Shown here one piece after another: positions 22,504 to 23,588 of a stretch of 64,000 bases of DNA. Positions within the stretch are counted from its first letter, which is position 1. Every line of letters begins with the position of its first letter. The position numbers and the translations under genes were made by a program. The notes under the pieces are model-generated. The model saw nothing but the letters and a program-made list of their open reading frames with translations. It ran no database searches and was not told where the DNA came from. The DNA is from Escherichia coli (GTDB lineage Bacteria > Pseudomonadota > Gammaproteobacteria > Enterobacterales > Enterobacteriaceae): the NCBI RefSeq assembly GCF_003018255.1, contig NZ_CP027440.1. One strand, written 5' to 3'.

Positions 22504-22926
22504 TTATCTAGCAATTTGTATTAAGGGGGTTTCACCCACATGTTTTAATAAACTCATTAACCAGATGGCCTCTTCTCTCGTTCCGGAGTATATTACCTTC
22601 GATTCATTTCTAATAATTCGAAGTGCTTCTTTTGTATCAATCGAAAAAGCCTTACGAATGACTTTTATAGTTTCCATCTGTGATTTTATATTTTCAAGTC
22701 TAACATTCCATAAACCCTCAAAATCAATCAATTGTAGACGAATTTTTTCTGGGGGAAAGCCTATATCATCTGATTCACTACGTAATCCGCAATTATGGCA
22801 TATAATTGATTCATACCATGCGAGTATACCATTGTGACTCGTCTGCCCTATAGCTATAGAACATATTTTTCCACAGCAAGGACACTCAATAGTCGTTTTA
22901 AATTCATCACCAAACACTATAACCAC
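22504..22926 (-). CDS. putative immunity protein for the main Rhs toxin (RhsI-like), Cys-rich zinc-ribbon-like N-terminus
   Basis: 140-aa ORF overlapping the toxin stop; CPCCGKIC ... CHNCG cysteine pairs. Confidence 0.55.
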   Translation of the reverse strand: MVIVFGDEFKTTIECPCCGKICSIAIGQTSHNGILAWYESIICHNCGLRSESDDIGFPPEKIRLQLIDFEGLWNVRLENIKSQMETIKVIRKAFSIDTKEALRIIRNESKVIYSGTREEAIWLMSLLKHVGETPLIQIAR

Positions 22927-23588
22927 CCTCTCATCCGCTTATATCTTCGAATCGTCTCGTAAAATTTCTGTTCCATCTCAGTACCTTTGGGATGATGATC
23001 ATTCAATCCTCGCTTCCACCACCTATGATGTAATTCTTCATGAATAATAACATCTCTTAATGCTGCACGAGACGAAAAACTATTTTTACCAAACTGAGTT
23101 CCTTCCCAAAGTTTAGCAATCCCTGTTCGCATAAACGGATTGTATTGAGGGATATATGTTAGTTTAAGATATGCAAAATCTTCTTTAAGTATGGCTGTAA
23201 TTGCCTTATTTCTGGCTCTGGCCGTAGAACCTGTAACATGACCGAGATCAGAAACATAAGTCTGTGGCCCTCTAGAAAACTCGACTGTTTTATTAATTAT
23301 ACTAGTTATAGCTAATCCCAGCGGATCAACATACCCACACGGATTAGGCACATACCGGTAAGTCTGCTCACCCCCCAGCAACCCCAGCGGATCACTCACC
23401 AGGTACATCCCTGTTTCCGGCTCGTAATACCGGAACCGGTTATAGCACAACCCGGATTCCGCATCCCGCCACTGTCCTGCATACAGCAGGCCGGGGTCGG
23501 GGTCGGCTTCCGGGTCCAGCTCCCCGCGCGGGTCCGGGTAGCCGGTGTCTGCGGGCAGACTGAGTGCCAGCCCCCACAGGCTGGTTTG
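22917..23588 (-). CDS. C-terminal extension of main Rhs protein: PxxxxDPxGL junction plus about 130-aa toxin domain with HExxH motif
   Basis: Same frame as Rhs core, separated by TGA at 23589-23591; translation ...YYEPETGMYLVSDPLGLLGG...VDPLGL then ...DVIIHEELHHRWW... Confidence 0.65.
   Translation of the reverse strand, partial: QTSLWGLALSLPADTGYPDPRGELDPEADPDPGLLYAGQWRDAESGLCYNRFRYYEPETGMYLVSDPLGLLGGEQTYRYVPNPCGYVDPLGLAITSIINKTVEFSRGPQTYVSDLGHVTGSTARARNKAITAILKEDFAYLKLTYIPQYNPFMRTGIAKLWEGTQFGKNSFSSRAALRDVIIHEELHHRWWKRGLNDHHPKGTEMEQKFYETIRRYKRMRGWL

Follow-up and report, generated by a model that had tools for sequence, protein, structure and literature searches.

We analyzed a toxin/immunity cassette located between positions 22,504 and 23,588 of a 64,000-nucleotide (nt) stretch of Escherichia coli DNA (assembly GCF_003018255.1, contig NZ_CP027440.1), to which we refer as the window. 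The region forms the C-terminal cassette, toxin plus immunity, of a class I prePAAR-PAAR-Rhs effector from a type VI secretion system (T6SS) and lies in the E. coli cusS-nfrB island. Its toxin tip is a full-length member of the Tox-MPTase5 family in the C-terminal toxin position of an RHS carrier, with an in-frame TGA codon upstream. The gene downstream of the tip is predicted from sequence to be its translationally coupled, conserved cognate immunity partner, whose product would bind the toxin and protect against it. This partner belongs to an unnamed family in which a four-cysteine zinc ribbon and a homologue of the C-terminal domain (CTD) of ribosomal protein bL12 are combined with a conserved linker, E-x-DD-x-GFPP-x-x-IR. 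Overall, these data would be best explained by a zinc endopeptidase directed against the stalk of the ribosome or the translation machinery and countered by a bL12-like decoy, a reading to which we give nearly an even chance.

Identity and conservation of the toxin tip

An earlier note on this DNA, made from the sequence alone, had described an HExxH motif in a tip of about 130 residues behind a DPLGL junction, in a domain of zinc-dependent hydrolase type that it did not recognize and took for a possible new toxin. The motif is there as described, with ALRDVIIHEELHHRWWKRG found verbatim: the minus-strand translation of 22917-23648 reads ...MYLVSDPLGLLGGEQTYRYVPNPCGYVDPLGL, then AITSIINK...ALRDVIIHEELHHRWWKRG...MRGWL and a stop, the tip starts directly after the second DPLGL, and HEELH forms its residues 91 to 95. 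The domain itself has a name. Pfam Tox-MPTase5 (PF15641) matched the tip with an E value of 2.5e-29 (score, 101.9; positions 2-110 of the 110 of the model), and PF15641 is precomputed on all 21 of the 21 tip homologues. Scanning the tip with NCBIfam returned nothing, and the toxin profile found no credible match among PDB sequences, the best hit being the unrelated IniA (E=0.099). Tox-MPTase5 comes from the purely computational work of Zhang, de Souza, Anantharaman, Iyer & Aravind in 2012 (PMC3482391), whose table gives the signature "HEELH", RHS repeats, a "T2SS" (type II secretion system) route and a "-" in the immunity column; a 2024 paper proposes the family for peptidase clan MA. Metallopeptidase tips are not covered by a preprint on the Rhs container. 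Because the family was defined in 2012 by the same HEELH, the toxin domain is not new, and it is carried by an effector of standard class I prePAAR-PAAR-Rhs type, save for a broken open reading frame (ORF). The earlier note had named confident homology to a characterized toxin family with a different active site as what would overturn its proposal; what we found is an experimentally uncharacterized family with the same HExxH site, and the proposal is therefore not overturned on this ground.

Homologues share 55 to 68% identity with the E. coli tip. They are found in Dyella, Massilia, Variovorax, Tahibacter, Pseudomonas, Lachnospiraceae, Anaerocolumna, Planctomycetaceae, Desulfobacterales, Thiotrichaceae and several Streptomyces, mostly at the end of Rhs/YD proteins, once on a carrier of the eCIS_core type (eCIS, extracellular contractile injection system) and in some cases as standalone proteins. 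The eCIS_core (DUF4157)-type protein has 1125 residues, and one standalone protein, of 154 residues, adjoins a Psb35 gene, likely on a cyanobacterial contig (L080; L004). HEELH, R97, W98, G102, H106 and F117 were invariant in both toxin alignments, and H96, W99, H107, Y118, Y124, R128 and G129 were conserved in at least 90% of the sequences. Likewise, 20 homologues from other phyla showed little or no variation in HEELH, in the HRWW next to it and in the HH 10 residues on, and the C-terminal RY..MRGW was invariant in the 20-sequence alignment. HEELH, R97, W98 and H106 do not vary among homologues from groups that include Proteobacteria, Firmicutes, Actinobacteria and Planctomycetes. The core of the toxin has a basic median pI of 9.75.

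The AlphaFold2 (AF2) model of the tip has a core with a predicted local distance difference test score (pLDDT) of about 90 to 97 and comprises one helix and a small sheet of three strands besides the HExxH helix and a helix at the C terminus. Since the solved folds nearest to the model are SprT, Wss1 and YbeY, the tip is predicted to be a minimal zincin of about 110 residues, in agreement with the hydrolase type proposed in the earlier note. In such a site, the metal would be bound by H91 and H95, with E92 as the general base, whereas the third ligand could be H106/H107, with SprT/Wss1-like spacing, or E114, with gluzincin-like spacing.

The immunity family and its bL12-like domain

The earlier note had placed an overlapping 140-residue ORF in the immunity position. 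This assignment is supported by its apparent translational coupling to the toxin, by its conservation downstream of the toxin across phyla and by fusions of the domain to Imm35. The NCBI Prokaryotic Genome Annotation Pipeline (PGAP) starts the gene 9 nt later, at GTG 22917, which gives 137 residues. We considered 47 distinct loci outside E. coli in which the toxin domain is full length and is followed by 450 nt of sequence or more. A family member lay directly downstream of Tox-MPTase5 in 40 of them, in several phyla and with a gap of typically -7 to +36 nt. The exceptions comprise toxin fragments (the second copy in L011, and L055), loci with no partner (L034, L036 and L073), a divergent toxin of 32% identity followed by a zinc-ribbon-only ORF with four cysteines (L031, 5355-5580), and a toxin with a bL12-like-only ORF that begins about 37 nt before the toxin stop (L045). 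If real, the "half" immunity proteins of L045 and L031 are natural experiments on which half suffices.

Seen from the immunity side, upstream Tox-MPTase5 domains were found on Rhs and on eCIS-type carriers. Of five divergent immunity members that we checked, two had Tox-MPTase5 immediately upstream, one was an orphan, one lay on a contig too short to tell, and the fifth adjoined an ORF that by eye resembles an immunity gene. The domain also occurs fused to Imm35, duplicated in tandem or fused to a further C-terminal domain (P0072, P0167, P0024 and P0113), and the gene is known as an orphan copy and as an array copy. The divergences of toxin and immunity protein are correlated (rho, 0.53). In 34 toxin-immunity pairs, the median pairwise identity was 58% for the toxin core versus 26% for the immunity protein. 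Both partners of polymorphic toxin systems normally diversify fast, so that the conservation of this toxin, from E. coli to Streptomyces and Lachnospiraceae, is unusual.

The immunity protein is labeled "hypothetical" or "uncharacterized" in NCBI and UniProt. The window protein had no Pfam match at E<=0.001, 80 members brought up no dedicated Pfam family, and NCBIfam returned nothing above its cutoffs, only subthreshold zinc-ribbon models. A word-indexed homology search yielded just 2 clusters, so that an exhaustive HMMER search was needed; this recovered 420 relatives at 50% clustering, 125 of them with E<=1e-10 and mostly of 130 to 150 residues. Their consensus reads CPxCG...GQ...L.W..S..C..CG...E.DD.GFPP..IR...G.W.L....LR..L.L...EA....GT..E..WL. 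Thus, of the new toxin/immunity pair suggested by the earlier note, the toxin family has been known since 2012, and the novelty lies with the immunity protein, which has no Pfam or NCBIfam family and no listing in PMC3482391.

With the family alignment, AF2 modeled the immunity protein with a pLDDT of 94.9 and a predicted template modeling score (pTM) of 0.86, as a zinc ribbon (residues 9 to 55), a helix (60 to 70) and a beta-alpha-alpha-beta-alpha-beta domain (about 72 to 138). Structure prediction, suggested in the earlier note as a check on both proteins, thus returned a minimal zincin for the tip and a zinc ribbon with a bL12-like domain for its partner. The ORF contains ...IECPCCGKIC...(25 residues)...CHNCG, the pattern that the earlier note had likened to a zinc ribbon. 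Indeed, C15, C18, C43 and C46 are each conserved in at least 90% of the 80 family members, and this part of the model has four beta-strands with a pLDDT of 96 to 97; matches to the zinc ribbons of Lar, Elf1, Rpb9 and ZPR1 were weak and below threshold. The N terminus is predicted to be a conserved four-cysteine zinc ribbon that would bind metal.

The C-terminal half was beyond what the earlier note could see. When the immunity family profile was compared to all PDB sequences, the eight best matches were all bL12, with E values of 1.8e-5 to 5e-4 and across the whole domain, and ClpS gave no match up to E=10. Pfam Ribosomal_L12 matched 19 of the 80 members at E<=0.1 and 4 of the 80 at E<=0.001, the window protein itself reaching E=0.098, which is below Pfam significance. 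A few family entries in the AlphaFold database are automatically named [quoted passage not shown], and the rest are uncharacterized. By profile and model, the C-terminal half is a genuine homologue of the bL12 CTD; since the N-terminal half is a putative zinc ribbon, the protein is a homologue of this domain and not a ribosomal protein. K70, R73 and E82 make up the factor-binding face of bL12, and 56%, 78% and 53% of the members, respectively, keep their equivalents. Additionally, E.DD.GFPP..IR, the most conserved motif of the family, falls exactly at the equivalent of the bL12 hinge/CTD junction. We found no discussion of the bL12 homology of this family in the searchable literature.

Carrier, nonsense codon and neighboring cassettes

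The features of the cassette and of its surroundings are collected in Table 1. Pfam identified prePAAR_I, PAAR_motif, DUF6531 and 10 RHS_repeat matches on the main Rhs ORF, and NCBIfam identified YD_repeat, RHS_core and T6SS_PAAR_dom. The effector thus has the prePAAR, the PAAR, the YD/RHS repeats, the PxxxxDPxGL end (here DPLGL) and the upstream VgrG of class I Rhs effectors. What it lacks is the single unbroken ORF from shell to toxin, since a TGA intervenes at 23589-23591. The earlier note had missed this codon; its end coordinate, 23588, falls exactly at the stop.

Table 1. Features of the cassette and its surroundings in the window
Feature	Position	Strand	Basis or remark
VgrG spike protein of T6SS	28237..30138	minus	NCBIfam TIGR03361, E=1.6e-188; upstream of Rhs effector
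153-residue ORF at Eag-type chaperone position	27748..28209	minus	Position and annotation in relatives
Main Rhs effector up to internal stop, 1379 codons	23592..27728	minus	Pfam and NCBIfam
In-frame TGA nonsense codon	23589..23591	minus	Translation; Gly codon GGA/GGG in other strains
Rhs core end beyond stop, with both DPLGL motifs (23379-23393; 23313-23327)	23313..23588	minus	Translation
Toxin tip, 131 residues, Tox-MPTase5, predicted minimal zincin	22920..23312	minus	HEELH, 23028-23042; stop codon, 22917-22919
Predicted cognate immunity gene, 140 residues from GTG 22926	22504..22926	minus	Overlaps toxin stop; GAGGG Shine-Dalgarno about 9 nt upstream
Predicted N-terminal four-Cys zinc ribbon, immunity residues 9-55	22762..22902	minus	CxxC at 22873-22884 and 22789-22800
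bL12 CTD homologue, immunity residues 72-138	22513..22713	minus	
Downstream orphan cassette	20273-22257	minus	Rhs core fragment, 21181-22257
Orphan tip, different, about 115 residues after DPLGL	20557-21000	minus	PGAP "papain fold toxin domain-containing protein" in near-identical genome
Orphan candidate immunity ORF, 93 residues	20273-20554	minus	No NCBIfam match
ISAs1/ISEc1-family (H-repeat) transposase	18746-19882	minus	Borders rhs array toward nfrB; same in E. coli W and PK8568

The stop stands 66 codons ahead of the first DPLGL, in the context TVWRP-stop-QTSLWG. Past the end of the Rhs ORF, the frame resumes as ..EGKTVWRP-stop-QTSLWGLALS...GMYLVSDPLGLLGGEQTYRYVPNPCGYVDPLGL, followed by the 131-residue tip that ends in ..RYKRMRGWL and a stop. 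The core end is common to the downstream orphan copy as far as the second DPxGL, and this copy carries the same TGA (21181-21183, minus strand). The closest genome, DETEC-S792, has it in each of its four core-end repeats, and PGAP there labels the homologous Rhs gene a pseudogene with the note "internal stop". In contrast to these, E. coli W and PK8568 have a glycine codon, GGA or GGG, at this position. Of 5,426 complete E. coli genomes, only 3 contain the exact 60-mer around the TGA. We rejected a sequencing error, since the codon recurs in both window copies, in the four copies of DETEC-S792 and in two further genomes. The nonsense allele is thus real, and it is rare, specific to a lineage and now spread across the repeated core ends; duplication or gene conversion has apparently carried it through the repeat array. 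Barring UGA readthrough, this stop prevents the strain from making a tip that is joined to the Rhs shell. UGA followed by C is a leaky stop context in E. coli, so that some readthrough may occur. As an in-frame TGA parts the Rhs core from the tip, the effector copy of this strain is probably disabled, while its immunity gene is intact.

By BLAST against complete E. coli genomes, the locus lies within an island of the order cusS-vgrG-rhs-...-ISAs1-nfrB-nfrA, and the order of vgrG before Rhs recurs in E. coli relatives. The 153-residue ORF between them gave no match in an NCBIfam scan, the one library run on it, and the gene at its place in two relatives (L001 and L003) is annotated "DcrB-related protein"; position and annotation make it a candidate Eag-type chaperone. 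The GC content drops from 0.60-0.65 in the Rhs core to 0.34-0.38 across the tip and the immunity gene, a typical signature of Rhs cassettes. Most of the 1.4-kb toxin/immunity region is present in 20 of the 5,426 complete E. coli genomes, which makes it a rare pair. A promoter and terminator scan of 22200-23700 gave results at chance level.

The array holds further cassettes in relatives. In E. coli W (L003, 8551-10563) and PK8568 (L002), the same Tox-MPTase5 cassette is an orphan and not the main tip, and the next orphan in these arrays has a second, different zincin tip, which PGAP calls "zincin-like metallopeptidase toxin". Beside the ISAs1 transposase of the closest genome, PGAP annotates a pseudogene fragment of the symE toxin.

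Possible target, alternatives and known systems

In the mechanism that we favor, the T6SS would deliver the effector, Rhs autocleavage at DPxGL would release the tip, and the tip would act in the cytoplasm of the target cell as a zinc-dependent endopeptidase. Its strong conservation across phyla and its basic charge suggest that the substrate would be an invariant, universally conserved cytoplasmic protein. The ribosomal stalk would be the likeliest target area, because the immunity protein carries a bL12-CTD homologue that keeps the K70/R73-type face: the toxin might cut bL12 itself, for example at its hinge, or, once docked on the bL12 CTD, a protein within its reach, and the outcome would be translation arrest. 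Such docking is proposed because the equivalents of K70, R73 and E82 are kept and because the GFPP motif is found at the hinge junction. The immunity protein would then be a non-cleavable bL12-like decoy that binds the toxin stoichiometrically, its zinc ribbon and its acidic, proline-rich linker occluding the active site. The more specific version, in which the toxin docks on the bL12 CTD and cleaves bL12 or a neighboring factor while the immunity protein serves as decoy, is tentative, somewhere between doubtful and close to even. We regard it as rather unlikely that Tox-MPTase5 toxins generally dock on or cut bL12 and that their immunity proteins are mimics evolved from a duplicated bL12 CTD fused to a zinc ribbon. 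In the strain studied here, the TGA would uncouple the tip from the Rhs shell, and activity would arise at most through low-level UGA readthrough.

Several observations weigh against a toxin aimed at the stalk. Our literature searches found no experimental study of any Tox-MPTase5 member, and the peptidase activity, metal content and substrate of the tip are all predictions from sequence and models. Seven of the 47 toxin loci have no detectable partner. Immunity proteins often recruit arbitrary small scaffolds, so that a bL12 ancestry need not reflect the target. It is indeed possible, with a probability clearly below one half, that the bL12-like domain is such a recruited scaffold, that the endopeptidase acts off the stalk on a cell-division protein, an envelope precursor protein or another housekeeping protein, and that the immunity protein relies mainly on its zinc ribbon and E-x-DD-x-GFPP linker to block it. 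This would fit the reuse of generic folds by many immunity families (Zhang 2012, PMC3482391) and the zinc-ribbon-only ORF behind the divergent toxin of L031. It would also fit the conservation pattern, in which the most conserved residues (the four cysteines, GQ, E51, D53, GFPP, R63, W73, T116, E119 and W122) are specific to the immunity family; the strongest of the immunity-specific positions (W73, T116, E119, W122 and GFPP) are absent from bL12. Finally, when toxin and immunity protein were fused through a glycine-serine linker and modeled with AF2 from a 34-row paired alignment, the individual domains were confident and their relative placement was not; with a pTM of 0.54, the interface is not confidently placed. 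On the other hand, a scaffold taken at random does not readily account for a sequence homology specific to bL12 rather than to the equally similar ClpS fold, nor for the retention of the exposed K70/R73 equivalents in most members. L045, with its bL12-like-only ORF downstream of the toxin, is the counterpart of L031, and a universal target, for instance the ribosome, agrees with how unusually well the toxin is conserved from phylum to phylum.

The tip might also be a metal-dependent hydrolase of zincin fold other than a peptidase, such as a YbeY-like nuclease of rRNA or tRNA or an enzyme acting on another non-protein substrate at the ribosome. The YbeY site is HxxxHxxxxxH and has no glutamate, whereas the tip has a peptidase-type H-E-x-x-H with an invariant E92. 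Both Pfam and Zhang 2012 (PMC3482391) place the family among zincin peptidases. Moreover, the immunity protein is near neutral and does not look like the acidic nucleic-acid mimics typical of nuclease immunity, and we consider a nuclease improbable. A different matter is whether the cassette has any current function in this strain. We find it rather probable that it is a decaying relic in which the toxin and immunity ORFs merely persist: the TGA stands in the main and the orphan copies, the allele is rare (3 of 5,426 genomes), the gene of the closest genome is a PGAP pseudogene, an ISAs1 element lies nearby, and relatives have truncated arrays. Yet the tip and immunity ORFs are otherwise intact and 97 to 98% identical to the copies in strains with an intact frame, the UGA-C context is leaky, and the immunity gene can still protect against kin with an active toxin. 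In any case, decay bears on the activity of this copy and not on the nature of the pair.

Like many other polymorphic-toxin domains, Tox-MPTase5 has been a computer prediction without a substrate for over a decade. For this family, a regular partner with a bL12-CTD homologue provides a concrete and cheaply testable hypothesis, namely, cleavage of the stalk or docking on it, and the unnamed immunity family, with its roughly 420 clusters at 50% identity, could enter the domain databases. If a stalk-directed zinc endopeptidase with a bL12-like decoy proves true, the toxin would be a bacterial counterpart of ricin and Shiga toxin, which exploit the eukaryotic P-stalk, and the first known interbacterial toxin aimed at the stalk, and its partner would clearly exemplify an immunity protein that descends from what the toxin attacks.

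Compared to known systems, the immunity protein differs from bL12 in that it has neither the N-terminal L10-binding and dimerization domain nor the flexible alanine-rich hinge, a putative zinc ribbon standing in their place, and in that it is encoded in a toxin cassette, whereas the bL12 gene lies in the rplJL operon. The minimal zincin proteases SprT/Spartan and Wss1 (WLM) share only 10 to 15% identity with the tip, with no significant PDB sequence match; unlike them, the tip has no DNA-binding or SUMO/ubiquitin modules and is a secreted toxin with a predicted immunity protein. The Tox-MPTase4 and PGAP zincin-like tips of E. coli belong to the same island and the same kind of cassette as Tox-MPTase5; they belong to a different Pfam family and appear to have different immunity genes. 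With Tox-MPTase5 as defined by Zhang et al. (PMC3482391) in gammaproteobacteria and actinobacteria, the tip agrees in its hidden Markov model match, in HEELH and in its place at the C terminus of RHS proteins, and we see no difference. Our analysis adds to that account a T6SS prePAAR-PAAR-Rhs carrier and a conserved candidate immunity partner, and it extends the range of the family to Firmicutes, Planctomycetes, Desulfobacterales and eCIS-type carriers.

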